Part shown: positions 15,776 through 41,848 of the stretch, in pieces
Position numbering within the stretch: the stretch's first letter is position 1
Layout of the letters: every line of letters starts with the position of its first letter
Source of the DNA: an archaeon
Lineage (GTDB): Archaea; Nanobdellota; Nanobdellia; Pacearchaeales; GW2011-AR1
Reading direction: 5' to 3'
Length of the DNA: 64,000 nt
NCBI GenBank assembly: GCA_018651925.1
Contig: JABIDC010000009.1
Location: 16,403-80,402, forward strand
Program-made: the position numbers and the translations under genes
The notes under the pieces: model-generated
Seen by the model: the letters and a program-made list of their open reading frames with translations, nothing else
Database searches by the model: none
What the model was told of the DNA's origin: nothing

Positions 15776-15820
15776 CCACCTCTTTAACATAAAATCAAAT
15801 ACAAAAAAGAATTAATAAAC

Positions 15821-17986
15821 TTAACTAAACATTCCCCCAAGAACTACTGAAGTTAAACCCACAAGTGCAAGAGTAGAAATTAATGCCACTACAAAATAAA
15901 GGACAATCCCAATCTTTAAATTTTTACCAATTTTATTTACCCTTACCAAATCATCCTTTCCCGAATCAATTGTAACCAAAGTTCCAGTTAAAATAAAAAT
16001 TATTTGAATCAAATAAATTCCAACCGCTAATTGCAAGAAATATGGGGGAATCATTGCTAGCACATCAAAAATATTCATAATATTTTCCACTCCTGCAATT
16101 CCAATATCTTGGCCAGCATCTAAAGAAGTTTGCATTTTTCCTAAAATCGAAGTAATCATAACAGATAATCCAACAACGACTCCAGAAAGTAAAGGTGCCA
16201 AAAAAGTCATATTACTTTTCATATCTGAAATTACTTCTGCTAACAAATCATTAAGCCTTACAGAAATCTTATTAATATTTTTAACATACTCCGAAATACT
16301 CATTAAACTCACTGCAGCAATTTTCAATCCTTTTTTAGAAGATTCAAGAAAAATTCTCATTGAAGTCGCAATTAATTGAGAAGGATAATAAATTATTGCT
16401 CCACGATTTTTATCAAAAATTGCTTTCTCTACACTCATTCCCGCATTCCGAATATTAAAATCAATTTTTCTAAAAAAATCCTCAATATTCAATCCGCGAG
16501 AAGACTCTGCAACTTTTCCAAAAACTAATTCCGGAGGAACCCCATTTCCAACACGATTTCCTAATTGGAATAAAGAAGAATTAAATTCCTTTTCTAGATT
16601 TCGGGTTTTCTCTCGCTCAACAATTAAATCTTTAGTTTTAGCATTATATGCAATGATAAAGAAAAAAGCTAACCCCAGAGGGAAAAACATTCCAAGCAAA
16701 GTTGCACCTAACCCAAAAGGCCCAACAGTTTGACCAGCATTATCTATAAATCCGAAAAACATCTCATTCTCTCCCATAAATCCTAAACCAAGTTCCCCAA
16801 AAGAATAATCGCTTTGCAAACCCATTAATTCCGGAATTGGAGTATACCCGAAAATCAGAGGCAAAATTCCTAACAAAAATAATGGAAAACAAATCACAAA
16901 AGCTTTTGTAAATACCGAATTATCTTTGTACTTAGGATACAAAGGATTACGTTCAAGAAGATCAGTTTCCCCATGACCCCCTGGACGAAGAAGTAAAACT
17001 TTGTCTGTTAAATAATAAACAAAAAAAGGAACAATCATATTAAATAAAATAACAACATGAACCCAAGTAACCAATCCTCCCAACATTGAAGATGCAAGAG
17101 GGATCATTGCTAAAGACAATGTTGGCAAAACAACCCCTAACATATAAACATTTGTCAAGGGACTTCTAACAGAATGACTAAACTTAAGCATCTTATCATA
17201 AACTCCATCAAGAACAACCTGTAAAGATTTTTCCAACGTAGCAATTCTCCGATTTTGGTCTGGTTCAAATAAACTTCCTTCAATCAAATGAAAAGCCTCA
17301 ACAAACTCAGAAGAATAGTCTCTCCAAGTTTCCAAATAATTATCTAAACTTTCCTTAATTGTAGAAAATTTTCCAATTTCAACATTATAAAATACTTTTT
17401 TAAAATCCAAACTTAAAGGATACTGTAAATGATCTGAAGCAAAAGCAATTGCTTTTTCTAAATTAGGAGTATGCCTCATATAAACTACAACATACAAAAT
17501 AGCTGGGACCATCTGACTAGAAGCCTTAAGTCTCCAAGAATTAGCAAGTCTCTCTGGATAAGCATTAATAAAATAATACAAGAACATGGATAAAATTAAA
17601 GAAAGAAAGAAAAACAAAAAAGGAAAAGCTCCATTAATAAATAACGCTGCTAAAGAAGCAAACAACCCAATTAAAAAAACCGCTAAAAAACTCATCATCC
17701 CCAATGAAAGGGCTTGCCAAGGTTCTAAGTCCAAATGTGCAATTTCCAAAGATCTCCGAACTTTTACTGCATCTTTTTCAGCAACCTTTATTTTAATTAT
17801 GCTTCCTAAACTTTTACACCATCTTTCATATCTAGAAAGTTCAGAACTCATTTCTCCCCGAAACTTTGAATAATCTTGACTATAATTAGAATCACTCCCT
17901 CCGCCATTCATTTGGCTTTCAATTTTGCCCCCATACTTTTGCAAAACTTCTTCTACAGTCGGTTTTTTATTAGAACCCATATGCAC
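15821..17986 (-). CDS. Polytopic membrane protein (721 aa, about 10 TM), candidate pilus platform protein (FlaJ/TadC/T2SSF-like)
   Basis: The call rests on position between the pilins and the secretion ATPase, and on an architecture of TM pairs separated by two soluble helical regions. The T2SSF assignment is by context, not by a recognised motif. Confidence 0.5.
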   Translation of the reverse strand: MHMGSNKKPTVEEVLQKYGGKIESQMNGGGSDSNYSQDYSKFRGEMSSELSRYERWCKSLGSIIKIKVAEKDAVKVRRSLEIAHLDLEPWQALSLGMMSFLAVFLIGLFASLAALFINGAFPFLFFFLSLILSMFLYYFINAYPERLANSWRLKASSQMVPAILYVVVYMRHTPNLEKAIAFASDHLQYPLSLDFKKVFYNVEIGKFSTIKESLDNYLETWRDYSSEFVEAFHLIEGSLFEPDQNRRIATLEKSLQVVLDGVYDKMLKFSHSVRSPLTNVYMLGVVLPTLSLAMIPLASSMLGGLVTWVHVVILFNMIVPFFVYYLTDKVLLLRPGGHGETDLLERNPLYPKYKDNSVFTKAFVICFPLFLLGILPLIFGYTPIPELMGLQSDYSFGELGLGFMGENEMFFGFIDNAGQTVGPFGLGATLLGMFFPLGLAFFFIIAYNAKTKDLIVEREKTRNLEKEFNSSLFQLGNRVGNGVPPELVFGKVAESSRGLNIEDFFRKIDFNIRNAGMSVEKAIFDKNRGAIIYYPSQLIATSMRIFLESSKKGLKIAAVSLMSISEYVKNINKISVRLNDLLAEVISDMKSNMTFLAPLLSGVVVGLSVMITSILGKMQTSLDAGQDIGIAGVENIMNIFDVLAMIPPYFLQLAVGIYLIQIIFILTGTLVTIDSGKDDLVRVNKIGKNLKIGIVLYFVVALISTLALVGLTSVVLGGMFS

Positions 17987-18029
17987 CTCTATAAAAAATA
18001 GAAAAACTAATTAATAAATCTTTAGAAAA

Positions 18030-21000
18030 TTAATTTTTATCTAAATTACTTTTAAAAGAATTATATTTATTTTTCCTCTCAAAAAAATGAATCAAAAGAA
18101 AAATAATTACAATTAAAATTGCAAAAGAAATTCCAATTAAAAAGTATTTGAAAAAATTATTTTTTTCTCCATTAACCATTCTAGCGATAATTGCAACTTC
18201 CCCTAAAGAATCTACTTCAGAAGAGAAATAAACAAAAATTTCATCACGGCTGATTTCACTTGTTAAATATTCCTTCGAATGAGACAAAGAATATAATGTT
18301 ATATCTGTCGCATTCAATAAATTCACTTCTATCCAAGAAAGAGGAACTTTGAAATACACTTTCCCCCGAACAAATCCAGAATCTGAACTCAAATTAAAAA
18401 TCTCGTAATTAATTATTTCCGAATCTAAGAAATAATCTGATTCATTTAAATCTCCAATTTCGAAGTTAAATCCTGTTCCAACATGCTCAATTTCTGCAGA
18501 ATAAACAGAGCCCCCCTCAAAAGAAAAATTACTTTGAATAGAATCTAGCTCCTCCCCCAAATAAAGATCTCCATCATCTCCAGAATAGGGGGAATCATCT
18601 CCTCCATTAGGACTCCCCGAACCAGGACTATAATCATCTGGAGTATCTCCCTCTGGCTCTGGTTCCCCACAATCTGAATCATTCAAATCAATAAATTCAT
18701 CACAATCATTATCTAAACCATCTTCACAAAGTTCAAAAACTCCTTCCAAAGGAGAACAATCACTCACTTGCGATCCTTCCTCGCAGATTAAAATCCCCTT
18801 ATTTACGCATGACCCGATTCCACAAGTTGTTTCATTTCCAAACCAAGATTCATCAATTCCATCTTCAGTAGATTCATCGCAATCATTATCTAAACCATCA
18901 CAAAGTTCTGGTGAGCCAAGAACTCCTGGAGCACAAGTATCTAATTGAACCCCTGCTTCACAATTAAAAACCCCTATATTTGAGCAAGCCCCAATTCCAC
19001 AATTTGTTTCATTTCCAAACCAAGATTCATCAATTCCATCAGTTGTTTCAGAATCACAATCATTATCTAAATCATCACAAATTTCCTCTTCTCCCGGATT
19101 AATATTTGAATTTTCATCATTACAATCTCCATGTCCAATAAATCCAATCTCTCCACTACATCCTCCCGCCTCCAAATAATATCCATCTTCATCTCCATCT
19201 GTACAGGTAGGAATTGTTTCAGTATCATAATATTTAAAGTCAGAAATAATTTCTTCCCCTGCACCATTAACATAAGAACAAGCCCAATTAAAAGCCCCAT
19301 TCAATCCTCCAATATTAAAAGTTTTAGAAGCAGTAATTCCAGTTAAGCCACATTGAGCAGTAGAATACCTTGCAGGAAAATTATTAACTAAATTTAATGC
19401 ATCCACTCCGCAAGAAGAAACTGGATCAAAGGAAAGATCGTCTGTAATCAAAACTAAATCTGGATAAGTCCAATATCCATCCACCGCAGCATCTATAATT
19501 TGGATATTTTTAGTTCCAGAAGTAGTTGAAACGTAACTTAATCCATTTTCCCAAGTAAATCCTCCGCTTCCATCCCCAAAAATTGGGCTCATATAATTTT
19601 CAATTCCAACTTGCCAAGTCCGATCACTCCCCCCAACATCACTTCTTGCAAAAACTGAATAAGTTCCAGAATCTAAAAATAAATTATAAGTCATATTTGA
19701 GCTTCCATCAGTTCCTTCTTCACTGATTGCATGTCCTAATGCGCTTGCAGTATTTTCAACAAAGACATTATTATCTTCACAAGATTCTAAACCAAAACAA
19801 ACATCCCATTCAGATTCAGAAAAATTAAATTTCTCTGCTTCTAAAAAATAATATTTATTAGATAAAAGTTCCTCTGTTTCCAGGATTTGCTCAACCCCAT
19901 AAGTTTCTTTTACTAAAGAAATACTCTGAATTCCTGTTGGATCCTCAATATCACAAATAAATTCCACAGTAGTTTCTCCCCCAGCACCATCAAAAGGAGA
20001 AGAAGTTATTTCTGGTACACATTGATCATCAAACCCATTACAATTTTCATCGATGGAATTCCCACAATTTAACAAAGGACTTTCAGCTTGTTGGCCAAGA
20101 AAAGGATTACAAGTTTGAGGAACACCGGCAACACAATTTTGAATAGTATTTGTGCAGATCCCTTCTCCACAAGTAGTTTCTCCTAAATATTCGTCAGTGT
20201 TATAATCACAATCATTATCTATTCCATCACAAATTTCCTCGCTTGGAACAATTGCTCCAACACACACACTCCAAATTCCACTCTCGCAAGTTTGTATTCC
20301 TTGTGTACATTGCCCTTCAGAAATTCCACAAGCCCTAGTTTCCCCATTAGTAGAACAACTTCCTCCAGTTCCCAAGGCAAAATTAAAATCAGTTTCTTGG
20401 GTAATTGTATACTCTCCAACTTCTTCAATGGTATTTTCATATTGAACATAAAATAGATGGGGTGTCATGGATGTCCTATTATGAACTCCCGAAGATCTCA
20501 TATCTCCTTCCTCATAATATTCTGTAACAATTAATCTCGCTTCTCCTACAACATTCGTTATTTCGGAAATTGTTTCCGGCAAAGAACTTGTTGAAATTGC
20601 AGTCACAATCGCATTTTCTAAAGGAGTTCCAGAAGCATCAGTAACCCTCACATTCACATACCATTGCTTAGAAAGATCATAAAGAGAAGTGTCTGTACTT
20701 GCGGTAAAAAAGTAAGCATCTTCTTCAAAACCATTCTCAAAATGATTATTTATCAACCTAATTCCAGGAGCTGTTGCACGATAATATCCAAATCTAATTG
20801 CAGATTCTGGCATTGAAGGCGAATAATAGGGATTGTCTACTCTTACAAAAGTATTATTTTCTAACCACTGATTTGCAGAATCTCCATAAAAAGAATTTAT
20901 CCATAATGCCTTATCATTTGTTTCAATATAATTATCTTTGAACAAAGGGTTTCCCTCATTATTATATGCATCTCCTCCAATATAAAATGCAAATACTGGA

Positions 21001-22655
21001 CTATCATCTCCTGCAGAAGTTTTTGTAACATAATATTTATTATTCCAAATCTGATTATTTTCTCCAGCAGCAGAATAAAATATTCCAGTTGTTACAGGCA
21101 TACAATTGTCATAAGCAGTTTCAAAATCTCTCCCTTCAATGTAAAAAGTATTATTTATTACATGATTATCATGGTTTGATCCACTTCCATAATCATTCAT
21201 TCTTATTGCATTCGTTGAATAATCTTCATTAATATATTCAACATTACAAGTAGCAGTTCGAACATAAAAAGTATTGTTTGTTATTTTATACCCATTACCT
21301 GAATAAACTAAAATACCACTTCCTTCAATTGGATCAAAAACATTATTATGGATAACTGGATTTATTGCACCACTATGAATGATCGCATAATGATTTGTTG
21401 ACTGAGCATTATTTCGGATATAATTGTATGAAACATTTGTTCCAACTCCCCCTAAACGAATTACTCCTTGCCCCCCAATCAAAGTATTATTATATAATAG
21501 CCCACTTCCCATAACAACATTTTCTTCAATGCTATTTTCTCTAGCAAAATACCATGGCATACTAACTTCTAAATGATTATTGTAAACATCTCCCCCCGTT
21601 CTTACCGTCCTAGATTGCATCCCTTGAACTCTAACATCCAAATCATGAAATTTTCCCATTGGAGCAGCAGAAGTTCTAAGAGCATAAGAATTTAAATTTT
21701 CATTTCCAATACGAATATTTCCATTCATAACTTCTAAAACTGGACGCCGATAATTATAATCTCCTAAATCTCCAGAATCCCAAGAACCTTGAAAATCTTG
21801 ACCAGGATAATTAACTTCTAATTGGCCCCCATAATTATATGAACTTCCACCAATAACTCCATAATCAGAATTAGGAACAATTCCAGTTCTATCAATATAT
21901 GCATAACCTTGTGTGGTTATTCTCATCTTATATTGCCCAGTATTATTTGCAAGAAATTTACAACCGAAAGATTTTCCCCGAAAAAAGCCCTCAGAAGTTT
22001 CTGAACAAATTAAATTATTATTTGCATCATATACATCAATTGTTAAGTCAGCAGTTTGAGCGCGGCCAAAAGTGGCATAGGCCACATATTCTCTTGGTGC
22101 AATAGGTAAATTAACATAAGAAGATTCTATACTCAGTGCATCTGCAGTATATAAAACAAAGTCCCCATGCATTGGTTGATAATAGGAAGTATTTCTTGCT
22201 TCAACAGTTCCAGAAAGAACATTCCAATTAATAGGATTATTTCCAGACCATAATTCAAAACCATTATTTGAAAGAGTTTGATAATCTGCTCCAGAATAAG
22301 TAAGAGTATATCCATTTAAGTCAATTGTAGTTGTAAATTTCTCTTCAGGTTGACCAACAAAACGTGTTACAATGCAAGATCTATCACAATTTAAATCTCC
22401 AGATAAAATAAAATAATAATCTGCTCCAGAAGTATCATCCAATACATAAACATCCCATTCAGAAAGATACTCGTAATTTGCACCAGATTGCCCAGGAACA
22501 ATTTCTTCACAATTATCAACAGAAATACCTGCACAATTAATGTCTCCGATTGCATATCCCGTGAGATTTCCGAATCCAATATAAGAAAGAAAGAACCCAA
22601 TTAATAAAAGAGCAACAACTGCAAATAAAAAATAACTCTTAATCCCCTCATTCAT
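18030..22655 (-). CDS. Giant (1541 aa) membrane-anchored surface/adhesin-like protein
   Basis: It has an N-terminal signal-anchor and a region of repeated NN(T/V/H)F/NNxY turns typical of parallel beta-helix (PbH1) repeats. A CarboxypepD_reg-like segment (VNVRVTDASGTPLENAIVTA) follows. At least six Cys-rich CDGxDNDCD modules of the MopE-type putative metal-binding kind come next, then an acidic Pro/Gly linker, a PGF-pre-PGF-like segment (VYFKVPLSWIEVN...GEVAIIA) and a C-terminal TM helix. Confidence 0.75.
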   Translation of the reverse strand: MNEGIKSYFLFAVVALLLIGFFLSYIGFGNLTGYAIGDINCAGISVDNCEEIVPGQSGANYEYLSEWDVYVLDDTSGADYYFILSGDLNCDRSCIVTRFVGQPEEKFTTTIDLNGYTLTYSGADYQTLSNNGFELWSGNNPINWNVLSGTVEARNTSYYQPMHGDFVLYTADALSIESSYVNLPIAPREYVAYATFGRAQTADLTIDVYDANNNLICSETSEGFFRGKSFGCKFLANNTGQYKMRITTQGYAYIDRTGIVPNSDYGVIGGSSYNYGGQLEVNYPGQDFQGSWDSGDLGDYNYRRPVLEVMNGNIRIGNENLNSYALRTSAAPMGKFHDLDVRVQGMQSRTVRTGGDVYNNHLEVSMPWYFARENSIEENVVMGSGLLYNNTLIGGQGVIRLGGVGTNVSYNYIRNNAQSTNHYAIIHSGAINPVIHNNVFDPIEGSGILVYSGNGYKITNNTFYVRTATCNVEYINEDYSTNAIRMNDYGSGSNHDNHVINNTFYIEGRDFETAYDNCMPVTTGIFYSAAGENNQIWNNKYYVTKTSAGDDSPVFAFYIGGDAYNNEGNPLFKDNYIETNDKALWINSFYGDSANQWLENNTFVRVDNPYYSPSMPESAIRFGYYRATAPGIRLINNHFENGFEEDAYFFTASTDTSLYDLSKQWYVNVRVTDASGTPLENAIVTAISTSSLPETISEITNVVGEARLIVTEYYEEGDMRSSGVHNRTSMTPHLFYVQYENTIEEVGEYTITQETDFNFALGTGGSCSTNGETRACGISEGQCTQGIQTCESGIWSVCVGAIVPSEEICDGIDNDCDYNTDEYLGETTCGEGICTNTIQNCVAGVPQTCNPFLGQQAESPLLNCGNSIDENCNGFDDQCVPEITSSPFDGAGGETTVEFICDIEDPTGIQSISLVKETYGVEQILETEELLSNKYYFLEAEKFNFSESEWDVCFGLESCEDNNVFVENTASALGHAISEEGTDGSSNMTYNLFLDSGTYSVFARSDVGGSDRTWQVGIENYMSPIFGDGSGGFTWENGLSYVSTTSGTKNIQIIDAAVDGYWTYPDLVLITDDLSFDPVSSCGVDALNLVNNFPARYSTAQCGLTGITASKTFNIGGLNGAFNWACSYVNGAGEEIISDFKYYDTETIPTCTDGDEDGYYLEAGGCSGEIGFIGHGDCNDENSNINPGEEEICDDLDNDCDSETTDGIDESWFGNETNCGIGACSNIGVFNCEAGVQLDTCAPGVLGSPELCDGLDNDCDESTEDGIDESWFGNETTCGIGSCVNKGILICEEGSQVSDCSPLEGVFELCEDGLDNDCDEFIDLNDSDCGEPEPEGDTPDDYSPGSGSPNGGDDSPYSGDDGDLYLGEELDSIQSNFSFEGGSVYSAEIEHVGTGFNFEIGDLNESDYFLDSEIINYEIFNLSSDSGFVRGKVYFKVPLSWIEVNLLNATDITLYSLSHSKEYLTSEISRDEIFVYFSSEVDSLGEVAIIARMVNGEKNNFFKYFLIGISFAILIVIIFLLIHFFERKNKYNSFKSNLDKN
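18660..19100 (-). repeat. Internal tandem duplication (about 180 nt / 60 aa period) encoding CDxLDNDCD...WFGNET.CGIG.C modules inside the giant gene
   Basis: On the plus strand, ccaaaccaagattcatcaattccatc...tcatcacaaa recurs near 18838 and 19018. The protein repeats are ICDDLDNDCDSETTDGIDESWFGNETNCGIGAC and LCDGLDNDCDESTEDGIDESWFGNETTCGIGSC, plus a truncated third copy. The bounds are approximate. Confidence 0.7.
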
Positions 22656-22692
22656 AAAAAAATAATATCTTTTACCTTAATAAAGTTTTATA

Positions 22693-23334
22693 TCACATTC
22701 TTCTTGCTTCATTTTTCTTCTTAGCAAGATAAGAGCCAATCAAAAAAACTAAAATTGCTAGGACAACTATAGAAATTAAAATTAAAAAAGCAATTTTAAC
22801 AGAAGAATAATCTTTTTCCACTGAATTATCCACGATAATTGCAATTTCTCCAAAATAATTTAAAATAGAATTATAATAAACAAATTCTTTGTCCCTTAAA
22901 ACTTCCCAAGTAGGATTTTTCCTTTCATCTAATATCGAAAACAAAACAATTTTTGAAGAATCAATTTTATTCTCCTGGAATCAACTGAGAGGGATTTTAA
23001 AATAAATTCTATTTTCTACAGATTCTCCAAAAGATTCAACTTTAAACAAATCATAAACAAATATTTCTTGAAAAGGATAATTCACTTCTTCTACTCCAGA
23101 AAGATTCAGATCAAAATCCTTTTCTCCAGAAATTTTGATTAAATAAATTGAATTATTTGGAAAACGAAAATCTATTAAAGAAATATTATTTTCTTCTAAA
23201 TTTAAACTTTTTTCAAAAGGAGCCTCAGGACCAAAAATTACCCCTCCTGTGAATGAAAAAGAATTTTTAACAAAGAATAAAATAATACCAATTACCAAAA
23301 ACCCCAAGAGAAAATAAAACTTATTAACTTTCAT
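22693..23334 (-). pseudogene. Small membrane-anchored PGF-pre-PGF-like protein, paralogous to the giant protein's C-terminus, interrupted by one in-frame TGA (22981-22983)
   Basis: ORFs 22981..23334 and 22693..22944 are in the same frame and are separated only by the TGA. The downstream piece has no ATG (the track starts it at TTG). The read-through sequence YFKIPLS*FQEN...GEIAIIV aligns with the giant protein's YFKVPLSWIEVN...GEVAIIA. Confidence 0.65.
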
Positions 23335-23379
23335 ATTGAAAAAAATAATTTAATGTTAATAAAAGTAACCCAAATTCAA

Positions 23380-24390
23380 TTAAAGTTTTGCCACAAGAAT
23401 TTTCAAATTAACTAAACTAATTCCCCCTAAGAAAAGAGAATAAAAATAATAAATTATTCTTTGCAAAAATCCGACTAATAAAGCCAAAGGAGGAGGAACC
23501 CCCATGACAGTATACAGCAAAGTCATAATGCTCTCCACAATCCCCATCCCTCCCGGAACAGGAGAAAGATTACCAATAATTTGACCTAATGTAAAAACAA
23601 TAATAATTGAAAGGAAATTTAAATGGCCCCCAAATGCAAAAAACAAAAAGTATGCCGTGAAAAAATTCCCTGCCCAAAACAAAATTCCAAATAAAACCCC
23701 AATGAAAAAAGTTTTTTTATTCTTCAAAATTTTCTCAAAGGACCCATAAAATGAATGAAATTTAACCCGAAGATAATCAATGAAAATTTCTTCTGTCTCA
23801 AATCTTCTTTTAAGAAATTTCAACCAATAAACTTTTCTAAAAAAAGTTTTCCAATTAGAACGAGACTTTTGAAAAATAATATAAAAAACAATAAAACTGG
23901 ACAAAAATACAAAACAAAGAACTCCAAACAAAATCCACTTTAAACTACTTGGAATCGGCACATAGAAAAAAACAAAACATATTGAAAATAAAACAAACAG
24001 AAATAAGACCAGCATCCGGAAAAAACTATCTGCTATAACTCCTCCAAAAACTTCACTTTTAGATTTACCATATTTTGAAGCGAGATAATGTGCTCGAAAA
24101 GGTTCTCCTCCAACACCCGCGGCAGGAGTAACGGTATTAAAAAATGCCCCTGCCAAAGTAACCTTCATAAAATAAAAAAAATCAAATTTTAAAAAACCTG
24201 CAAAAATATTTTTCCAATTAAAAACCGTTGAAACAAAAGTCAATCCCGTTGCCAAAATAGCTAGAAGAAACCAACCAATTTTAGCTTGAGAAATTAATAA
24301 ATAAACTTCATAAAAATTAATATCCTTTAAAACAAAGAGTAATAAAAAAAAAAGAATTAAAATTCCAAGAACATTTTTTATCTTTCCCAT
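23380..24390 (-). CDS. Polytopic membrane protein, flippase-like / LPG-synthase-TM (UPF0104) family
   Basis: It has about 8 TM helices. The N-terminal pattern (K..l.iliLffll..l..i.f.ev...i..a...wlllai) and the GGEPFR-type loop (GVGGEPFRAHYL) are typical of that family. Confidence 0.55.
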   Translation of the reverse strand: MGKIKNVLGILILFFLLLFVLKDINFYEVYLLISQAKIGWFLLAILATGLTFVSTVFNWKNIFAGFLKFDFFYFMKVTLAGAFFNTVTPAAGVGGEPFRAHYLASKYGKSKSEVFGGVIADSFFRMLVLFLFVLFSICFVFFYVPIPSSLKWILFGVLCFVFLSSFIVFYIIFQKSRSNWKTFFRKVYWLKFLKRRFETEEIFIDYLRVKFHSFYGSFEKILKNKKTFFIGVLFGILFWAGNFFTAYFLFFAFGGHLNFLSIIIVFTLGQIIGNLSPVPGGMGIVESIMTLLYTVMGVPPPLALLVGFLQRIIYYFYSLFLGGISLVNLKILVAKL

Positions 24391-24442
24391 AAAATACCAA
24401 AAATAAAAATCCTTAATAAAGGTTTTCTTATTTTATCTAAAT

Positions 24443-26728
24443 TTAAAACTTTTTAGATTTTATCTTTTCATTCAACCATTTTTGCCACTCGGGGAAAACT
24501 CTTTCGCTAGTAGGAAGCCCAATTTCTTGAATAATATTATCTGAAATCTTATGAAAGGAATCATTTGCAATAACACTAAAACCTGCTTCAAGAATTTTAT
24601 CATTCTTAATTTTTTTAGAAACCTCTACAAGCTCATTTTTTATTTTTGAACGAAGCAAAATATTATCATAAACTGCATCCCAATCTCCTGCCCAACCTTT
24701 TACATTAGCAGCAATATCTTTTATTATTTCACTATCCCCATTAATTAAATCGTCTGTGGGTTCTAGCTCATCTTTCTCCACATTATATTTCATTAAATCA
24801 ACAAAACCTTTTTCTTCCATCGGATCTTCTGTCCAATGCTTTCGAATTTCAGATAATTGTAAAAGTCTTCTCCACGAATGCATTCCATCAGGAGACTTAA
24901 TTGGATTTGCAACAGCAATAATGTCTGTTGCCTTAAAACTGGTTTTAGGAACACCCAAATCATTTACCACCCGATCATAAACCCCATAAGGTGATGCTCC
25001 ATGAATTGTTCCTGCAACAACATTCGCAAGAGCTCCAACACGCATAGCTTCATACAATGCTTTTGCTTCTTCCGAACGAACTTCACCAAGAATCAAAGCA
25101 GAATCTCCTAAACGCAAACTTGTCCTAATTCCATCCTCTGCAGAAACCTCTGCAGTTGTTTTCAATAAAGCAGAACGAACCTTCATCCTTAAAATATCAT
25201 AATTCAAATTTCTTAAGGCAGTAACAGGCAATTCCAATGTATCCTCAATTACAATCACTCTATTCTTAGGGATAATTTCTAACATCAAACTTCCCAACAA
25301 AGAAGTTTTTCCTGAACTTCTAGTCCCAGCAACAAGCATCGTTCTTGCTCCATCAATTAAAAAACTCAATAGTCCTGCAGATAAAGGGTTAACCATTTTA
25401 TTTTTTATAAATAAAGGGAGAGTCCAAGGATCTTCCCTATGTCTTCTGATTGAATAAGCAAGACCATCGGGACTCAAAGGTTCTTGAATAATTGCAACTC
25501 TTGCACTAATCTTCCCAATTTCCAATTGAGTATCTAAAATCGGATTTGCTTCATTCAGCGGCCTACCAGAAATCATTCTAAATTTCGCAGCCCAAGAATC
25601 TGCATCTTCTGCACTAGGTAAAATATTTGTTGAACATTCTCCGTGAATTCCGTGGCGAACAAAAATATTCACTTTTGGAATGGGTGCATTTAATGAAATG
25701 TCCTGAAGATGTTTATCTTGTAACAAAACTTCTAATAATCCAAAACCAATTGTATGCCTAACTAAAATTATTGAAAGATTATTTAATTCCGAATAACTCA
25801 AACGAATACTTTTTGAATTTGCAAGATCCGAAATCAAATCTTTTGAAATATTAAAAAATACTTGTCTAATTCTATCTGTATCGGTAAATTCCTTTGCTTT
25901 TGGTTGGTGTTCCATCAAAGTTCCTCTCGCTAAATTCAAAAGAGAATTAAAATCCTCACTCAAAGAATTCTCAGGAGGACTTAAATGATAAATAAGTTTT
26001 GCTTCATCTTTTTTCTTTAGAATTGTTACTAAAGATTTATCATAATCTTTACCAATTTCATATTGATCAATAATCTCAGAATCTCGAGGCAAATCAAAAA
26101 CTAACCGAGTAAAAGTAAAATTCGGGATTACATCTGGCTTAAAGATCAAACGATAAACTTCCCTGTCTCCCGTGGAATAATCTGAAAGATAAGGCAAAAT
26201 CAAAGAAATCAATTTAGTTTTTTCAAATAAAGAGATTAATTTTTCTAAATAGTAAATATAATTTGCAAAATCAGATTTATTTTCTTCGCCAGCTTTTGTT
26301 GAATCAATTTTTGCTTCAATTAAAAATTTTCTAAGTTCATGATATGCATAGATTGGATCTTTTTTTAATACGCTCAAAAAAGAAAACATTGAATTGTATC
26401 TTTTTGAAAACATTGCTTCATTCGAACTAGCTAATTTTTCATGAGATAAAATCCTCTCTTGTTTTAGCAAAAAAGTGTAAAAATTTGCAACCTCTAAAAG
26501 ATAATTTGTTTCTTTCATATCATAATTATAATTTTTCTGTTGAACAAAAACAATTCTCGAAACATTCTGATTTTCAATTAACAAATCGACAACTCTTTCC
26601 ATAATTTCTGGCATCTCAACTAAACTCGGAATAAAGGGCGCACCTACAAAATTAACATACATCACATCTTCTCCACCTTCTCTCGAAACCTCGTAATCAT
26701 ACAATGGAGCATCCTTCCCAAATTGCAT
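24443..26728 (-). CDS. Type II/IV secretion system ATPase (FlaI/VirB11/GspE family) with long N-terminal extension (761 aa)
   Basis: Motifs include Walker A VAGTRSSGKTSLLGSL, VIVIEDTLELP, the Walker B/His-box region LILGEVRSEEAKALYEAMRVGA...GTIHG, and LQDISLNAP in the upstream region. Confidence 0.85.
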   Translation of the reverse strand: MQFGKDAPLYDYEVSREGGEDVMYVNFVGAPFIPSLVEMPEIMERVVDLLIENQNVSRIVFVQQKNYNYDMKETNYLLEVANFYTFLLKQERILSHEKLASSNEAMFSKRYNSMFSFLSVLKKDPIYAYHELRKFLIEAKIDSTKAGEENKSDFANYIYYLEKLISLFEKTKLISLILPYLSDYSTGDREVYRLIFKPDVIPNFTFTRLVFDLPRDSEIIDQYEIGKDYDKSLVTILKKKDEAKLIYHLSPPENSLSEDFNSLLNLARGTLMEHQPKAKEFTDTDRIRQVFFNISKDLISDLANSKSIRLSYSELNNLSIILVRHTIGFGLLEVLLQDKHLQDISLNAPIPKVNIFVRHGIHGECSTNILPSAEDADSWAAKFRMISGRPLNEANPILDTQLEIGKISARVAIIQEPLSPDGLAYSIRRHREDPWTLPLFIKNKMVNPLSAGLLSFLIDGARTMLVAGTRSSGKTSLLGSLMLEIIPKNRVIVIEDTLELPVTALRNLNYDILRMKVRSALLKTTAEVSAEDGIRTSLRLGDSALILGEVRSEEAKALYEAMRVGALANVVAGTIHGASPYGVYDRVVNDLGVPKTSFKATDIIAVANPIKSPDGMHSWRRLLQLSEIRKHWTEDPMEEKGFVDLMKYNVEKDELEPTDDLINGDSEIIKDIAANVKGWAGDWDAVYDNILLRSKIKNELVEVSKKIKNDKILEAGFSVIANDSFHKISDNIIQEIGLPTSERVFPEWQKWLNEKIKSKKF

Positions 26729-35138: not shown

Positions 35139-35825
35139 ATGACAGACTTTCAAAATATTTTCCAAGAAAGAAAAATAATAATTAAAGAAAATCCTAAACC
35201 AAAAATAAAAATCTTTGTAGATTATAGGGAAAAAAATTGTTTTGTTCCAACAAATTTAATTAATTTAAACTTTGAAGTAGAATTCAGAGAACTAAAGGTT
35301 GCAGATTATCTTGTAAATAATATTGCCATTGAAAGAAAATCCATAGAAGACTTTCTCTCTTCAATGAAATCAAATAGACTTTCTCAACAAATTCAAGACC
35401 TACAACAATATGAAAACAAACTCCTAATCATTGAAGGAATCGAAGAACAAGAACTCTACAATGATTATCAAACAACAGGAATTTCTGCAAACGCCATCAG
35501 AGGATTCCTTCTTTCGATAACAATCAAACATAAAATCCCTTTAATCTTTTCAAAAAGCCAAAAAGACACCGCTCAATTTATTTCAGTCTTAGCTAGAAAA
35601 AAAGAAACAGAGTCAAGTTTAAATGTTCGAAAAAAATCTCTTAACAAAAAAGAACAAATGCAATTTATTCTAGAAGGGTTCCCTGGAATCGGGCCAAAAG
35701 CTGCAAAAAAACTTTTAACAGAATTCAAAACGATAAAAGAAATCATGAATTCCTCTCAAGAAGAACTAAAAAAAATAATTGGGAAAAAAGCAGAAATATT
35801 TGAATTAATTAATTGTAGATATTAA
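35139..35825 (+). CDS. XPF/ERCC4-type structure-specific nuclease with C-terminal (HhH)2
   Basis: It carries the ERCC4 signature VDYREK...VADYLV...IERKSIEDF and the C-terminal EGFPGIGPKAAKKLLTEF. This corresponds to the nuclease half of Hef. Confidence 0.8.
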   Translation: MTDFQNIFQERKIIIKENPKPKIKIFVDYREKNCFVPTNLINLNFEVEFRELKVADYLVNNIAIERKSIEDFLSSMKSNRLSQQIQDLQQYENKLLIIEGIEEQELYNDYQTTGISANAIRGFLLSITIKHKIPLIFSKSQKDTAQFISVLARKKETESSLNVRKKSLNKKEQMQFILEGFPGIGPKAAKKLLTEFKTIKEIMNSSQEELKKIIGKKAEIFELINCRY

Positions 35826-37027
35826 AAAATATTTTCAAAAAACCGAACAAACCAATTTTTTATTGGCTTAGTATTACATTCTCCAGCAGAACAACCATAA
35901 AGACACACATGTTCTTCAGTAAGATTATTAAAATCTTCTGAACAATATCTTTCAAAAAGGAGATCTCCATCAAAACAATAATCTTCAACAGAAGGCCCAA
36001 AAGAATAATTCAAAATTCCTTTTACAAAATAATCTTTTCCCCCATCTGAATCAGTACAAAAAAAACTCGAATTTTCTTCTTCCACCATACAAGCCCCATT
36101 TTCGCAAATGTAATTTCCTCCACTACCACCAGGGCAAGTAACTCCAACTTCCTCAACTAAACCCTCGTTACAATAAAACTCGTGTACTCCTCCTTCGTCA
36201 ATACAATAATCTTGTCCTGAAAAAACTCCATTAGAATATGCTTCTCCCCTTTCAAAAACATTCATTCCCCCATCTGAATCATTACAAGAAGTATTTGCTC
36301 CAAAAGATTCATTTGGTTCAATACAAGCCCCATTTTCACATCCAAACTCACAAGGAATGTTAATTATTTCTAAATTATCTCCTTCACAATAAAATTCTCC
36401 GATAAAAGAAGATTCATTATACATAGAAAGGATACATGATTCTGCCTGCATAATTGAATAATCAGGAAAAATTAATCCAGAAGTTCCAGGAATAAATGGC
36501 TCTACCCCCCCGTCTGAATCTACACAAGTTTGATTGAGAATTTCAGAACCCCCTCCACTATGATTTGTGCTAGAAGTATCATTAATTTGTAGACAATAAC
36601 CATTTTCACATCCAAACTCACAAGGAATTTCCACATTTTTTCTTTCATTTCCAGAACAATAACACTCTAGAAGGATTCCTTCTGTATAGATTGTACCATT
36701 ACTAAAATAAATTGTTGAACCGACACAAACATCTTCCATCATGCTTGCCGAACCCCCATTTTCATAAGAAACAGCTTCAATGCAAGATCCAAAAACATAA
36801 GGTTTCACCCCTCCATCTGAATCAGTACAAGTTTGGTTTAGGACAACAGACTCATTAGGCAAAATAATTCCACTAGAACCTCCTCCTCCAGAACTTCCCC
36901 CATCAGACATCTCCTCAACAGCATTTCCACTAATCTTATTAAATAAATCTTCAAAAATATTTGCAGAAACTAAAGAAGGTAAAACTATCAACATTAAAAA
37001 AATTAAAACCAAATTTCCTCTCTTCAT
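35822..37027 (-). CDS. Secreted Cys-rich repeat protein (4 x CxDSDGG modules), many N-x-S/T sequons
   Basis: An N-terminal signal/TM (LVLIFLMLIVLPSLVSA) and a Gly/Ser linker precede four modules of 65-85 aa. Each module reads C(T/V/N)DSDGG...D.C...L.E.YC...C..GC..G.C. The C-terminal tail is KNWFVRFFENIF. Confidence 0.7.
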   Translation of the reverse strand: MKRGNLVLIFLMLIVLPSLVSANIFEDLFNKISGNAVEEMSDGGSSGGGGSSGIILPNESVVLNQTCTDSDGGVKPYVFGSCIEAVSYENGGSASMMEDVCVGSTIYFSNGTIYTEGILLECYCSGNERKNVEIPCEFGCENGYCLQINDTSSTNHSGGGSEILNQTCVDSDGGVEPFIPGTSGLIFPDYSIMQAESCILSMYNESSFIGEFYCEGDNLEIINIPCEFGCENGACIEPNESFGANTSCNDSDGGMNVFERGEAYSNGVFSGQDYCIDEGGVHEFYCNEGLVEEVGVTCPGGSGGNYICENGACMVEEENSSFFCTDSDGGKDYFVKGILNYSFGPSVEDYCFDGDLLFERYCSEDFNNLTEEHVCLYGCSAGECNTKPIKNWFVRFFENIF

Positions 37028-37073
37028 AAAAAAATATTATTTTTAATGTTTATAAAACTATCTTCAAAATAAC

Positions 37074-37877
37074 TCAAAATTTCTCAAGAATCTTTGCTCC
37101 AAGTTTTACTGTCAAGGAACCAACATCTTTTTTTGGATTAATCTCCACCAAATCAATTGCCTTTAAATTTTTCATCTTACTCATCCTATCACATAAATAC
37201 AAAAATTCTTTTGAAGATAACCCTCCTGCTTCAGGACAGCCTGTTCCGGGGGCAAAGGCAGGATCGATAAAATCAATATCAATGGAGAGATATAATTCTT
37301 TTCCACTAGAAAATTCCATAATCGATTCTATTGTTACATTTAAATCTTCCAAAAAACTTTTCATCTCAATTTGTCGAATACCTTTTTCCTTCAAAAAACT
37401 TTTTTCAACATTATCCAAATTTCTTGCACCAATTAAAAGAATATTCTTTGTAGGAAAACCATCATCAATTAATCCTCGAAGCCATTCTTCATGGGTAGGG
37501 AATTCCGGATCCATTGGTTCCATACAATCAGGATGAGCATCAAAAATAATTAAACAAGGTTTCTTCCCAGAATTATCACAATAATCAAAAAAAGCCCTAG
37601 TTAAAGGGTAACTAGCAGAATGGTCTCCTCCAACAAAAGAAACCTTTTTCTCTTTATTTAAAATTTCAAAAGCAAATTCATAAATTTTTTTTGTCGCTTT
37701 ATCCAATTCATCATTATCAAAATCCACTTTTAAAAAATCTTTCTCCAAAATTTTAGAAATTTCTTTTGGAGCAAACTCACAACCTTTTGTCTTATTGAGC
37801 CCATTAACTAAAGGGACACTAACATATTTCATTCGTTCGCCTCCAAATTCAATAGCGGACGAGCTAGGAAGCTGCAT
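37074..37877 (-). CDS. speB: Agmatinase/arginase-family ureohydrolase
   Basis: Mn-binding motifs GGDHSASYP, IIFDAHPD and SIDIDFIDPAFAPGTG are present. The likely start is the internal Met at 37832 (MKYVSVPL). Confidence 0.8.
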   Translation of the reverse strand: MQLPSSSAIEFGGERMKYVSVPLVNGLNKTKGCEFAPKEISKILEKDFLKVDFDNDELDKATKKIYEFAFEILNKEKKVSFVGGDHSASYPLTRAFFDYCDNSGKKPCLIIFDAHPDCMEPMDPEFPTHEEWLRGLIDDGFPTKNILLIGARNLDNVEKSFLKEKGIRQIEMKSFLEDLNVTIESIMEFSSGKELYLSIDIDFIDPAFAPGTGCPEAGGLSSKEFLYLCDRMSKMKNLKAIDLVEINPKKDVGSLTVKLGAKILEKF

Positions 37878-37951
37878 AGCAAATTTCTTGTCTTTGATGA
37901 AAAGAGTTTATGATTTTTCATTAAATAAAAAGAGAAAAAATGTTTTTAAGA

Positions 37952-39199
37952 TTAACTAAACAAATCTTCAAAGAACTTGGTAAACCAATTTCCCCGAGAA
38001 TTACATGCTCCTTCAAAACAACCGTTTTCACAAGCAACATATTTGTAATTCAGGTCATTAGAAAATTCCTCATTTTCAACTTCATCACAATAGTATTCAA
38101 ATAGATAACCTGCATAAGGGCCTTCTTCAATACAATTATCCTCCACCAAAGTTCCCATTCCATCATTTGCAAAACCCTTTATTGGATAATTTAATCCTCC
38201 ATCAGAATCATTGCAAGGGAAAGTTATATCTCCTACTCCCAAAGCAGACTCTGGCAGACACATCCCCCCGAAACAACCATTCAAGCAATCAAAACTAGCA
38301 ATCTTTAAATCTCCCTCAAGACAATAAGTTTCCAATAAAGTATTTTTGTCATAACAAGTATCTGCAATCTCCTTTTCCCCACTAGTAGCCACCCCTGAAA
38401 GATAATAATCTCTTCCTAAATCTGTTTCTGAACACTCCCCCAAATCAATCTCTTCTAATTCTATTGATTGATTTTCCTCTAATGAAACACAAGCCCCTTC
38501 AAAACAACCGTTTTCACAAATCGTAGGAATAACTTCCAAACCACTTAATCCACAAGAACATTCAAATAAAAGAGTCTCATTCAAACACCTGTCCCATCCA
38601 GTAGAAGAATTTTCCCCCTCTGGAAAAATAATTGTTTCTGAACAAGAACCATAAATAAAAGGAGCGTCACCAAAATCACTTTCAGTACAAGTAATATTTT
38701 CTTGAAGAGTATAATTAGTTTGTTCAGCTAAACAAGCTCCTGCAAAACATCCAAATTCACAATCAACTTCAATAGACTCTAAAGAATCTTCTTCACAATA
38801 ACATTCTTTTAAACTGGTTAAATCAGCACTACAAACATCTCCAGTTCCATCTGCATTTCCCCCTTCAGAATAAAAAACCTCTCTTACACAAGTTCCCCTA
38901 ATGAAAAGTTCAATTCCATTATCACTATCTGTGCAAGATTGATTTATCACCGAACGACAATCTTCAGGACAAGAGGTAATTGTTTCTCCTTTTCCACAAA
39001 TCCCATTTCCACAAACAGGCATAACTCCTGGATCTCGGATATCTCCAACATCCAATTCATTAGTAAAAGTATCTTCAAATGTAACCTGCCCGGTCCCAAT
39101 TTTTAAAAAACCCGATTGAATAAGAAAAAAAGCAATAACCACCAAAAATAAAACCAAAAGAGTTATTGTTTGAAATTTTTTCATAAATAAGATTGCCAA
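37952..39199 (-). CDS. Secreted Cys-rich repeat protein, paralog of 35822..37027
   Basis: It has an N-terminal TM, a CGNGICGKGE..CPEDC motif, and four modules (CTDSDNG, CTESDFG, CSETDLG, CNDSDGG) with the same Cys spacing. The C-terminal tail is GNWFTKFFEDLFS. Confidence 0.7.
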   Translation of the reverse strand: MAILFMKKFQTITLLVLFLVVIAFFLIQSGFLKIGTGQVTFEDTFTNELDVGDIRDPGVMPVCGNGICGKGETITSCPEDCRSVINQSCTDSDNGIELFIRGTCVREVFYSEGGNADGTGDVCSADLTSLKECYCEEDSLESIEVDCEFGCFAGACLAEQTNYTLQENITCTESDFGDAPFIYGSCSETIIFPEGENSSTGWDRCLNETLLFECSCGLSGLEVIPTICENGCFEGACVSLEENQSIELEEIDLGECSETDLGRDYYLSGVATSGEKEIADTCYDKNTLLETYCLEGDLKIASFDCLNGCFGGMCLPESALGVGDITFPCNDSDGGLNYPIKGFANDGMGTLVEDNCIEEGPYAGYLFEYYCDEVENEEFSNDLNYKYVACENGCFEGACNSRGNWFTKFFEDLFS

Positions 39200-39219
39200 T
39201 AGAACTTTAAAAATATTAC

Positions 39220-40440
39220 TTAATTATTTTTTGGAATCAATGCAACAAAACTATTTTTTTTAAAAATAGATTTTGCAATATCTTTAACATCCTTTAGTTT
39301 TACCGAAGAAATATTTTTTTCAAAATCATAATACTCCCTAGCATTTCCATTACTTTCAAAATGAAGTAAATTTTCCATTTGACCAACAGAATCTTCCATG
39401 GAAATTTGATGATTCCCAATAATTTGTTCTTTAACTCCCCTTAACTCTTTTTCAGTCAAATTATCTGCAACATCTTTAAATTCCTTTAAAATTAATTTTT
39501 TTACTTTCGCGACATTTTCCTTAGTTGTTCCCACATAAATTAATCCATATGAAAAATCCAAACTAATATCAGATTCTTCTTTAATTCCATAGGCAAGATT
39601 TCTTTTTTCACGAATTTCAGAAAATAACCTTGAAGACATTCCCCCCGCCATAACGATTCCCAAAACTCTTGCCGCATAATTTTTCTTATCCGAAGCTAAA
39701 GGAAGATGATAGGAAAAAACTAAGTTCGCCTGATCCACTCCAGCCCTTTCAAAAATCTTTGTTTCATTTTTTAACTTAATCTCGAAAGAAGGAATTTCTT
39801 TCTTTGGACCTTTAAACTTTTTTTCTGCAAAATCAACTAATTTCTTAAAATCACAATCTCCAACAACACATAAAATCATATTGTTAGGAGAATAAATTTC
39901 ATTAAACTTTGAAGAAATTTTTTTTCTATCAATTTTATTCAAAGTTTTTTCATCTCCAATCATTGATTTCCCAAAAGGATTTTCATAAAGAAATTCGTGG
40001 GCCTTATCTACCACAAAAACATGCGGACTATCTTTCCTCATTTTTATTTCCTCAAAAATAACTTTCCTTTCTTTTTCCAATTCCCTAGAATCAAACAGAG
40101 GGTTTTTTACAATGTCTGACAAAACATCTAAGCCAATTTTCAATTTTCTCGAAGGCATCCTGCACCAATAAGCAGTAATATCTTCTCCTGTAAAGCCGTT
40201 TAATTCCCCTCCATTTTTTTCAATCTCTGCTGCAATTATTTTCGAATTCGGTCTTTTTTCAGTTCCCTTATATAACATATGTTCGATAAAATGGGAAATT
40301 CCTTTTTCTTCCAAAGATTCATTAATCCCTCCATTCTTTACTCCGATGGCAACACTAACAATTGGTAAATTTCTCTTTTCCAAGATCACGGTCATACCGT
40401 TAGATAAAACTTTTCGAAAAAAATTCTTTTTTGGATTCAT
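39220..40440 (-). CDS. M16-family (pitrilysin-like) zinc peptidase
   Basis: It has the inverted zinc motif HFIEHMLYKGT (HxxEH) with the downstream E in ELNGFT. The length is typical of a single-chain M16B protein. Confidence 0.8.
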   Translation of the reverse strand: MNPKKNFFRKVLSNGMTVILEKRNLPIVSVAIGVKNGGINESLEEKGISHFIEHMLYKGTEKRPNSKIIAAEIEKNGGELNGFTGEDITAYWCRMPSRKLKIGLDVLSDIVKNPLFDSRELEKERKVIFEEIKMRKDSPHVFVVDKAHEFLYENPFGKSMIGDEKTLNKIDRKKISSKFNEIYSPNNMILCVVGDCDFKKLVDFAEKKFKGPKKEIPSFEIKLKNETKIFERAGVDQANLVFSYHLPLASDKKNYAARVLGIVMAGGMSSRLFSEIREKRNLAYGIKEESDISLDFSYGLIYVGTTKENVAKVKKLILKEFKDVADNLTEKELRGVKEQIIGNHQISMEDSVGQMENLLHFESNGNAREYYDFEKNISSVKLKDVKDIAKSIFKKNSFVALIPKNN

Positions 40441-41299: not shown

Positions 41300-41848
41300 C
41301 TAACAAACTCCAAGACGCATAGGTCCCTCAATGCCAGCCTGTGGAATCATACAAACAGGGCAAGGAGCACCGTTACAAGTATGAGAAAATTCTCCATCAA
41401 ATTCTATGTAGCCAGGACCAATTTCTACATACCTTCCAGGATCTTGAATAACTTTAAATCCATCTTCATTCAAATAAACATCATTTCTTAAATCATAACT
41501 TGAAAAATGAACACCGTCAGAACCATCTTGAAAATCAATTGATCCTTTAACGTCCAAGTTTCTTGTAATTTCTGCACTACCTTCAACAAAGAGGGCATTA
41601 GTTCCACCAGGGTGTCCAACACTTAAAACTTGTGAACCCTCTCCTTCAATTCGAAACATCCCTGATTCAACATTAAAAACACCTGGAGTTAATTTGTCTA
41701 CAGAAAGAGAAACAATTTCATTTCCCGTATGACCCATCAAAGCAGGATTTCCTGAGTTAGTTGCATAAACAATTGATCCACTTCCAAGTACAATTAATGC
41801 ACAAAGAATAAAAAAATATTTCTTAGTAATTTCAATTGTCACCCTCAT
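41300..41848 (-). CDS. Secreted hypothetical protein (182 aa) with Cys-rich C-terminus
   Basis: It has a signal peptide KKYFFILCALIVLGSGSIVYA and a C-terminal CNGAPCPVCMIPQAG...GVC. No family was recognised. Confidence 0.5.
   Translation of the reverse strand: MRVTIEITKKYFFILCALIVLGSGSIVYATNSGNPALMGHTGNEIVSLSVDKLTPGVFNVESGMFRIEGEGSQVLSVGHPGGTNALFVEGSAEITRNLDVKGSIDFQDGSDGVHFSSYDLRNDVYLNEDGFKVIQDPGRYVEIGPGYIEFDGEFSHTCNGAPCPVCMIPQAGIEGPMRLGVC

Follow-up and report, generated by a model that had tools for sequence, protein, structure and literature searches.

A C-terminal amphipathic anchor was reportedly described for PBP5/DacA and PBP6 by Pratt in 1986 and by Phoenix and Pratt in 1990, both as cited in PMC2909392. 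That report on Escherichia coli PBP5 states that the last 18 residues form an amphipathic helix, which is required for attachment to the outer face of the membrane and for function (PMC2909392). Here we describe two paralogous Cys-rich proteins, A and B, whose C-terminal tails resemble this anchor. They are encoded in a 64,000-nucleotide stretch of DNA (the window; GenBank assembly GCA_018651925.1, contig JABIDC010000009.1, positions 16,403 to 80,402 of the forward strand), and the genome is that of a Pacearchaeota/Woesearchaeota-type DPANN archaeon. Members of DPANN grow attached to other cells, and nearly all of their surface proteins are annotated as 'hypothetical'. We hold, with moderate confidence, that A and B are glycosylated, disulfide-bonded cell-surface proteins kept on the membrane by an in-plane amphipathic helix, as PBP5 is.

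Like PBP5, A and B would be exported with a Sec-type signal, lack a transmembrane (TM) segment and carry a short aromatic amphipathic helix at the extreme C-terminus, behind a β-rich domain. Their tails also combine a high helical moment and a contiguous apolar face with the absence of a hydrophobic run in the last 12-13 residues. The differences from PBP5 are nonetheless clear. Both proteins are archaeal and would meet an ether-lipid membrane, the helix comprises 12-13 residues rather than 18, and it stands at a fixed spacing of 17 residues from a Cys. In addition, the tails of B and of its homologue P0215 are not basic. No sequence homology links the two systems, and the likeness as an anchor comes here from sequence and modelling. 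We treat the tail as a putative archaeal anchor of an undescribed type.

Two other described systems resemble these proteins. As in the Archaeosortase/PGF-CTERM system, a conserved motif is found at the extreme C-terminus of predicted surface glycoproteins, and an archaeosortase-family gene is present in the same genome. Unlike that system, the A/B tail has no TM helix, basic cluster or PGF-like signature, and genes with the tail are few per genome, with two in this one and rarely more than one pattern match elsewhere. The repeated module of A and B, which we call CxDSDGG, recalls the EGF-like, TSP type 3, Kazal and TIL modules, which likewise have about 60 residues and six conserved Cys. It shares with them tandem arrays (up to 26 copies per protein), shuffling among extracellular architectures and linkers predicted to be glycosylated, and its acidic residues are reminiscent of Ca2+-binding repeats. 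It differs from them in having no Pfam or NCBIfam match, in its predicted five-stranded β domain and in a distribution centred on DPANN archaea. Modular, Cys-rich surface proteins that are anchored peripherally are already known as a kind; the module and the tail are parts undescribed in the literature that we found.

Architecture of proteins A and B

Protein A (35822-37027; positions are those of the window, and all features of the two genes lie on the minus strand) has 401 residues, including 26 Cys, and is composed of a signal peptide, an N-terminal aromatic helix, a Gly/Ser linker, four modules and the tail. Protein B (37952-39199) has 415 residues when read from a TTG codon, including 32 Cys, and is composed of an N-terminal hydrophobic anchor or signal, a short motif, a 4-Cys mini-module, four modules and the tail. 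The TTG start at 39199 competes with an ATG five codons on (39184), which would give 410 residues and is the start used in public gene calls. The number of Cys is even in both proteins. Aligned from end to end, they share 32% identity (E 6e-43), and the profile hidden Markov model (HMM) matched A with a full-sequence E value of 2.3e-51 and B with 5.1e-42.

Each protein contains four C-x-[DE]-[ST]-D-x-G starts, and the HMM delimited four modules in each, all eight with independent E values from 5e-9 to 2e-15. Module 1 of A (residues 67-145; 36593-36829; E 3.3e-11) is an 8-Cys variant with a long hairpin insert, outside of which the predicted local distance difference test score (pLDDT) was 82-96. 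It is followed by module 2 (residues 168-235; 36323-36526; E 5.9e-12), module 3 (residues 248-313; 36089-36286; E 2.4e-13), in which the loop between the fourth and fifth Cys is longer, and module 4 (residues 324-384; 35876-36058; E 2.4e-15). In B, modules 1 (residues 89-156; 38732-38935; E 1.4e-10) and 2 (residues 171-237; 38489-38689; E 4.6e-9) have 8 Cys each, and modules 3 (residues 256-314; 38258-38434; E 6.8e-13) and 4 (residues 329-399; 38003-38215; E 3.3e-12) complete the array. The extra Cys co-occur as a pair in module 1 of A and in modules 1 and 2 of B. Ahead of its array, B carries the mini-module CGNGICGKGETITSCPEDC (38957-39013) with 4 Cys, which is also present in P0215 and in the same-genus orthologue of B (CGDGVCNSWESSLNCPIDC).

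The consensus of 88 modules was CTDSDGGxxYxxKGT...DxC...LxEYYC...CPxGCxxGAC. In their alignment the six Cys, D9, G11 and E40 were invariant, and D7, G18, D30 and G63 were at least 90% conserved. The acidic motif D-S-D-G-G differs from the canonical DxDxDG. Judged from this conservation, the four acidic residues (D7, D9, D30 and E40) may bind Ca2+.

A first-pass annotation of this DNA had proposed two paralogous secreted proteins at these positions, each with an N-terminal signal or anchor and with four modules, next to genes for an agmatinase and an M16 peptidase. Export signals are visible in the sequence, and identity, motif starts, HMM and Pfam matches agree with that description. The Cys framework that it gave as invariant stood overall; the Leu of its L-x-E motif is Ile, Val or Phe in some modules, and module 3 of A has C-x9-C instead of C-x3-C. 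The mini-module was absent from its list, as was a short motif found at both ends of each protein.

The C-terminal tail

The tail of A, IKNWFVRFFENIF (residues 389-401; 35825-35863), is a predicted 13-residue amphipathic helix that ends 17 residues past the last Cys. The tail of B is NWFTKFFEDLFS (residues 404-415; 37955-37990). The helical hydrophobic moment at 100 degrees was 0.73 for the A tail and 0.63 for the B tail, which places them at the 99th and 95th percentile of the C-terminal 11-mers of the genome (0.74 and 0.63, respectively). A β-strand reading was rejected, the moment at 170 degrees being only 0.38 for A and 0.18 for B. The A tail was also modelled as a helix in both AlphaFold2 runs (residues 320-401 and full length).

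The ends of the two proteins had been reported beforehand as KNWFVRFFENIF and GNWFTKFFEDLFS, with no TM helix, and this is exactly how they read. Conservation in orthologs had been set as the test of the tail, and it was found in P0215, in the same-genus positional orthologue and, in register, in more distant relatives. P0215 ends in GNWFSNLFEDLFS, of which the tail proper is NWFSNLFEDLFS. The same-genus orthologue, which occupies the position of B, ends in STWFIKFIKRLFS, with TWFIKFIKRLFS as the tail proper. More distant relatives carry a canonical tail, such as GLIQKILNWFKNLFG. With 28 tails aligned on the C-terminal hydrophobic pair, we defined the canonical Nanoarchaeota tail as C-x3-G-h-h-x-x-h-h-x-W-F-x-N-L-F-G, with hydrophobic positions 6, 7, 10, 11, 13, 14, 17 and 18. 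Counted from the last Cys, the hydrophobic core ended after exactly 17 residues in A; the same held for 21 of 23 tails from more distant relatives. The A tail kept seven of the eight hydrophobic positions and N16; the tails of B, P0215 and the same-genus orthologue were two residues shorter at the helix start. In the orthologues the apolar face was kept and the polar face varied among Lys, Asn, Glu, Asp and Arg. Across the paralogue and the orthologues, at about 30% identity, the tail was conserved more strictly than the surrounding modules. Its net charge was +2 in A, +3 in the same-genus orthologue and +1 to +3 in most of the distant tails.

The tail is portable. It ends proteins that have no module (L062 and L052) and follows different last domains. 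It was present on about 9% of 214 module proteins, and it was nearly exclusive of an N-terminal lipobox (1 of 54 versus 18 of 131). Other module proteins have a C-terminal TM+KK anchor in the place of the tail, and the other Cys-rich exported proteins of the genome end in an ordinary TM segment with a Lys-rich end. The idea of a genome-wide sorting tag was rejected, since in this assembly, which is 87% complete, no protein other than A and B has the tail. A strict DNA pattern, W[FL]xxhFG followed by a stop, was sought in 301 genomes of the order and matched in 59, seldom at more than one place in a genome; control matches were about half as many by eye. Ten of the 30 matches inspected proved to be genuine ends of genes, and these all belonged to one C-terminal domain family. 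A pattern for the tail variant of A and B gave only T-rich chance matches besides A and B in 101 genomes of the family.

We also observed that the canonical tail ends a larger, conserved Cys-rich C-terminal domain that likewise has no Pfam entry, with the pattern ..KCYPxGYRKxGxYCS....NFECxSNxCxxGxC[VI]xxG[LF]IxKILNWFKNLFG (loci L045, L050, L052, L054, L056-L058, L061, L062, L065 and L169-L186).

N-termini and predicted glycosylation sites and disulfides

Residues 1-22 of A, MKRGNLVLIFLMLIVLPSLVSA (36962-37027), read as a Sec-type signal peptide with a basic n-region, a hydrophobic core and the residues VSA, and a helix was modelled at residues 3-21. This signal peptide is presumably cleaved. 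The next residues, 23-34, NIFEDLFNKISG (36926-36961), form an aromatic amphipathic motif, a variant of SA|GWFxDFWxKITG, in which a helix was modelled at residues 24-33 (helical moment 0.55). In B, the hydrophobic segment at residues 11-28, TITLLVLFLVVIAFFLIQ (39116-39169), could be a signal peptide or an uncleaved signal anchor, and no clear AXA site was seen. The N-terminus of the same-genus orthologue is of the same kind. The N-terminal motif of B lies at residues 33-49, KIGTGQVTFEDTFTNEL (39053-39103), and consists of xTGxV followed by FEDTF; the equivalent in P0215 is KIGTGQVIFEDTFTNEL.

The core FE[DN]xF is common to the tails and to the stretches behind the signal, NIFEDLFNKISG in A and ..GTGQVTFEDTFTNEL in B. 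Each protein thus has the short motif at both ends: NIFEDLF and RFFENIF in A, VTFEDTF and KFFEDLF in B. In many relatives the form SA|GWFxDFWxKITG stands right behind the signal peptide. The shorter pattern x[IL]TG[NKQH][AV] behind an N-terminal hydrophobic segment was found in 8 of the 163 such open reading frames of the genome, with about 3 expected. As a side observation, the aromatic helix followed by x[IL][TS]G[NKQH][AV][VI], in full form SA|GWFxDFWxKITGKA, occurs in many exported proteins of the lineage. Besides A and B, it was noticed on contigs C2, C3 and C9 of the genome of A and B (G000) and in relatives L092, L095, L105, L125, L139, L167 and L101.

Sequons (N-x-S/T) numbered 13 in A, or 0.032 per residue against a genome 95th percentile of 0.020, and 7 in B. 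Their concentration at module junctions, noticed in the first reading of the sequence, was borne out, with 8 of the 13 in A and 4 of the 7 in B lying within the short inter-module linkers. A sequon stood exactly three residues before the first Cys in five of the eight modules of A and B, compared with 3.9% of 1313 family modules. P0215, a homologue from another metagenome that shares 79% identity with B, retains every one of the 32 Cys and 7 sequon positions. In four of the latter the residues differ yet still spell a sequon (NQS to NQT, NYT to NYS, NIT to NLT and NSS to NLS). Such retention is good indirect evidence, drawn from sequence comparison, that the sequons are used, and together with the AglB homologue described next it strengthens the case for glycosylation.

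The genome encodes an AglB/STT3 homologue that scored 53.6 bits, over the cut-off (G000:C6:98968-99906, minus strand), and a VKOR homologue that scored 67.2 bits (G000:C6:15692-16048, plus strand), just upstream of the window. The genome is thus equipped both for N-glycosylation and for the formation of disulfides outside the cytoplasm.

Structure and distribution of the module

That the module is not a named domain, as had been suspected from the letters alone, held in searches of Pfam-A, NCBIfam and the PDB. At E up to 1, neither Pfam-A nor NCBIfam matched A, B, any of the 88 single modules or a relative with 15 modules. A sequence profile search of the PDB with the module gave nothing significant (best E 0.88). 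Foldseek found no match in the PDB for the module model (best E 1.9, template modelling score at most 0.31) and none for the full-length A model (E 0.015 at a template modelling score of 0.11). Literature searches on the motif and on DPANN Cys-rich surface proteins returned nothing relevant. Within these searches the module is an undescribed domain family without an entry in Pfam, NCBIfam or the PDB.

Residues 320-401 of A, modelled by AlphaFold2 with the 88-module alignment, reached a pLDDT of 90.4 and showed five β strands followed by the tail helix. The full-length model of A had a pLDDT of 81 and a predicted template modelling score (pTM) of 0.35. It contained the helix of the signal peptide (3-21), a helix at residues 24-33 (NIFEDLFNKI), a disordered Gly/Ser linker (36-60), four well-modelled β modules joined by low-confidence linkers and a terminal helix (392-400). 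Because the pLDDT was 81 with a pTM of only 0.35, and because the linkers were disordered, A is modelled as flexible beads on a string, with the modules independent of each other.

A Kazal identity of the module (PF00050/PF07648) was rejected. The hhalign probability against 25 genuine Kazal domains from homologues was 0.3%, and no Kazal match was obtained for A, B or the 88 single modules at E up to 1. Some homologues bear the database name 'Kazal-type inhibitor' because 42 of the 214 relatives carry a separate, genuine Kazal domain at the N-terminus. We observed in this connection that these 42 relatives share a Micrarchaeota architecture (P0004, P0005, P0007, P0009-P0014 and others), which has a lipobox-like N-terminus (..SGC), one Kazal domain, 5-8 modules and no C-terminal anchor.

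When 1.84 billion representative proteins were searched with the profile, 12,078 matched at E up to 1e-3, 4,691 at E up to 1e-10 and 863 at E up to 1e-30. Of the 121 genomes sampled from the phylum, 82 had the module, which covers 72 of the 98 genera; among close relatives the figure was 25 of 61. Named matches and neighbours came from Pacearchaeota, Woesearchaeota, Nanoarchaeota, Micrarchaeota, Aenigmarchaeota and Altiarchaeales metagenome-assembled genomes. In relatives the module is joined to Kazal, dockerin, S-layer-like, CARDB, SLH, CBM35 and TSP3 domains, as promiscuous extracellular modules used for spacing or binding typically are. A ninth copy in the genome of A and B stands alone at the C-terminal end of a secreted 554-residue protein that resembles HEMGH zinc metalloproteases. 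This protein is encoded beyond the window (G000:C2:54138-55802, minus strand) and adjoins three paralogous Cys-rich, TM-anchored proteins of 419-455 residues.

Proposed membrane anchoring and alternative explanations

Anchoring by the tail would proceed as follows. A would be exported by the Sec pathway through its cleavable signal peptide, and B through a signal peptide or an uncleaved N-terminal anchor. Outside the cell the Cys pairs would be oxidised, a VKOR homologue being encoded, and AglB would glycosylate the Asn-x-Ser/Thr sites clustered in the flexible linkers. The product would be a flexible string of four small, rigid β modules with six or eight Cys each. The last 12-13 residues would fold into an amphipathic helix, apolar over a broad face of Trp, Phe and Ile and polar over a narrow one. 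This helix would lie in the interfacial region of the membrane and tether the protein without spanning the bilayer, like the C-terminal helix of PBP5. The aromatic helix right behind the signal peptide might provide a second, weaker membrane contact. The array of modules most probably serves as a spacer or as an adhesive element of the surface. Elsewhere the module has been shuffled among proteases, Kazal inhibitors, dockerin and S-layer-like proteins, and the genes of A and B lie in a fast-changing insertion slot.

Several observations weigh against this model. The tail helix is short, at 12-13 residues, and was modelled at a pLDDT of only 52-70. The tail of B has a net charge of 0 and that of P0215 one of -1, whereas tails of the PBP5 type, and most of the related ones, are basic; this weakens the case for a simple electrostatic attachment to anionic lipids. 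The canonical tails are more sequence-specific than amphipathicity needs, with WF[KR]NLFG identical across many genera; a partner protein or an enzyme that processes them could be what recognises them. Members of the family can evidently do without an anchor, since none is recognisable in about half of the module proteins. Finally, A and B are the only tail carriers in a genome assembly that is 87% complete.

The first-pass annotation had left the role of the tail between sorting, anchoring and docking. Anchoring fits best, and docking is its serious rival. The tail and the N-terminal motif would then be a protein-protein docking peptide, with the aromatic face inserted into a groove of an S-layer or pilus partner, or with A and B joined head to tail in chains or a coat. 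The same short motif at both ends of each protein speaks for this, as do the highly specific canonical tails (WFKNLFG) and the non-basic tails of B and P0215. Among the 214 relatives, the N-terminal motif and the tail co-occurred above expectation (odds ratio 6.7, p 0.012), as assigned by a crude classifier and with an obvious lineage confound. This co-occurrence may be a lineage effect, and the relatives of the lipobox type have neither element. Type IV pilus-like genes were the best recurring neighbour of the tail genes, being found beside 3-4 of 18 tail-protein loci, but this proximity is explained by the shared synteny of the region. No partner was identified, and the polar face varies freely, even among close orthologues. 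We consider docking unlikely, though it is the alternative to which we give most weight. A sorting signal removed by a dedicated enzyme, archaeosortase-like or other, with covalent attachment of the protein to lipid or wall, fits least, since a TM helix and a basic tail are absent, and we regard it as the least probable of the readings. The extreme C-terminal position, the fixed spacing and the conserved terminal LFG or LFS are what such a signal might look like, and the genome has one open reading frame of the exosortase/archaeosortase family (TIGR04178, 36.6 bits, 183 residues, G000:C6:135963-136208, plus strand). That frame is not linked to the tail genes, however, and the TM+KK surface proteins of the genome are likelier clients of its product. 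A scan of the genome with PF09721 gave no match, although its control also missed Haloferax. The tripartite arrangement of motif, TM helix and basic cluster is absent from the tails, no hydrophobic run reaches 15 residues, and the protein ends at the helix or one residue past it. No enzyme gene was found to recur around the 18 tail-protein loci. Sorting signals usually occur on many proteins per genome, whereas the strict tail pattern rarely occurred more than once in the genomes that it matched.

A and B might instead be freely secreted, soluble factors, such as protease inhibitors, metal or glycan binders, or toxins against the host or competitors, and the tail an incidental or folding-related end. 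This would agree with the joining of the module array to an N-terminal Kazal inhibitor domain in 42 of the 214 relatives, with the single module on the secreted HEMGH protein and with the relatives that have no recognisable anchor. The module itself is not Kazal, as the hhalign comparison and the 88 modules show, the tail is kept more strictly than the modules around it, and B apparently retains an uncleaved N-terminal hydrophobic segment. On balance we find it very unlikely that A and B are soluble. Anchoring by an in-plane helix can also be extended. CxDSDGG would then be a Ca2+-stabilised DPANN repeat of a new fold, akin to Ig, FN3 and cadherin, and the two terminal helices together an undescribed membrane-attachment device of Nanoarchaeota without a TM segment. 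In the boldest form, B-like proteins would be rooted by the N-terminal segment in the membrane of the symbiont itself and would insert the C-terminal helix into the membrane of the host, as part of the molecular staples by which these ectosymbionts stay on their hosts, with the hypervariable slot serving host-range adaptation. This extended reading is speculative, and we think it rather improbable.

Genomic context

On the minus strand, 35822-40440 holds four tightly spaced genes in the order M16 peptidase, B, ureohydrolase and A. The intergenic gaps are 20 bp between the M16 gene and B, 74 bp between B and the ureohydrolase gene, and 46 bp between the latter and A. The stop of A overlaps the end of a convergent Hef nuclease gene. 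The ureohydrolase of the arginase family (37074-37877, minus strand) is a probable agmatinase. It matched Pfam PF00491 with E 1.8e-51 and scored 130 bits against TIGR01230, under the cut-off of that model; the gene was kept in 19 of 26 relatives. The M16 (insulinase-type) peptidase (39220-40440, minus strand) matched Pfam PF00675 and PF05193, has an HFIEH motif and has no signal peptide. These two genes belong to the conserved backbone of the region. We also noted a 182-residue protein (41300-41848, minus strand) with an N-terminal hydrophobic segment and no Pfam match, encoded between a methyltransferase gene and a divergent GTPase-like gene.

We found 311 relatives of the M16 gene and examined 80 named Pacearchaeota, Woesearchaeota and Nanoarchaeota loci (L089-L168). 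In 50 of the 80, an agmatinase gene lay downstream of the M16 gene on the same strand. The two genes were adjacent, with a gap below 300 bp, at 34 of these 50 syntenic loci. At the other 16 the gap held inserted genes; at least 11 of these coded for exported Cys-rich proteins, 8 had the N-terminal motif, at least 9 had modules and 3 had tails. The occupants of the slot are diverse, mostly exported Cys-rich proteins of 200-1158 residues; in the window the slot is 37878-39219.

In the same-genus genome (G001, CAZBAB010000036.1; L002/L138), the order is M16 gene, a gene for a 312-residue protein (423-1400, minus strand) and agmatinase gene. This protein is about 30% identical to both A and B. In place of two modules, half of the array, it has an 80-residue Asn-rich linker with about 13 sequons. 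By this sequence comparison the B-type surface protein appears to evolve very fast, with about 30% identity within a genus. No A-type gene follows the agmatinase gene there.

A functional operon with the agmatinase and M16 genes was rejected, because the same-genus genome has the gene in the position of B only, the two enzyme genes are adjacent in 34 of the 50 relatives and the other 16 have unrelated exported proteins in the slot. The bracketing of the agmatinase gene by A and B, with the M16 gene before them, had been put forward at the outset, and it holds as a description of positions and not as a functional unit. Given the 34 adjacent pairs, the 16 filled gaps and the missing A-type gene in the same-genus genome, the M16/agmatinase junction is a slot into which genes for variable surface proteins are repeatedly inserted. 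B occupies this slot, and A is an extra copy specific to its own species.

In several genomes (L176, that is G152:C4, and two to three other loci), tail genes were seen beside type IV pilus-like clusters and a Hef helicase gene, as in the window at 11076-26728. The tail genes near pilus-like genes probably mark one conserved, insertion-prone region of the chromosome.

Significance for DPANN surface biology

One domain definition for the CxDSDGG module would annotate thousands of proteins, with more than 12,000 representative clusters and about two-thirds of the sampled genomes of the phylum. The M16/agmatinase landing site offers a handle on strain-level diversification of the surface. If the tail is a lipid-surface anchor, it would be a third way to hold archaeal surface proteins, besides TM/PGF-CTERM segments and lipoboxes.

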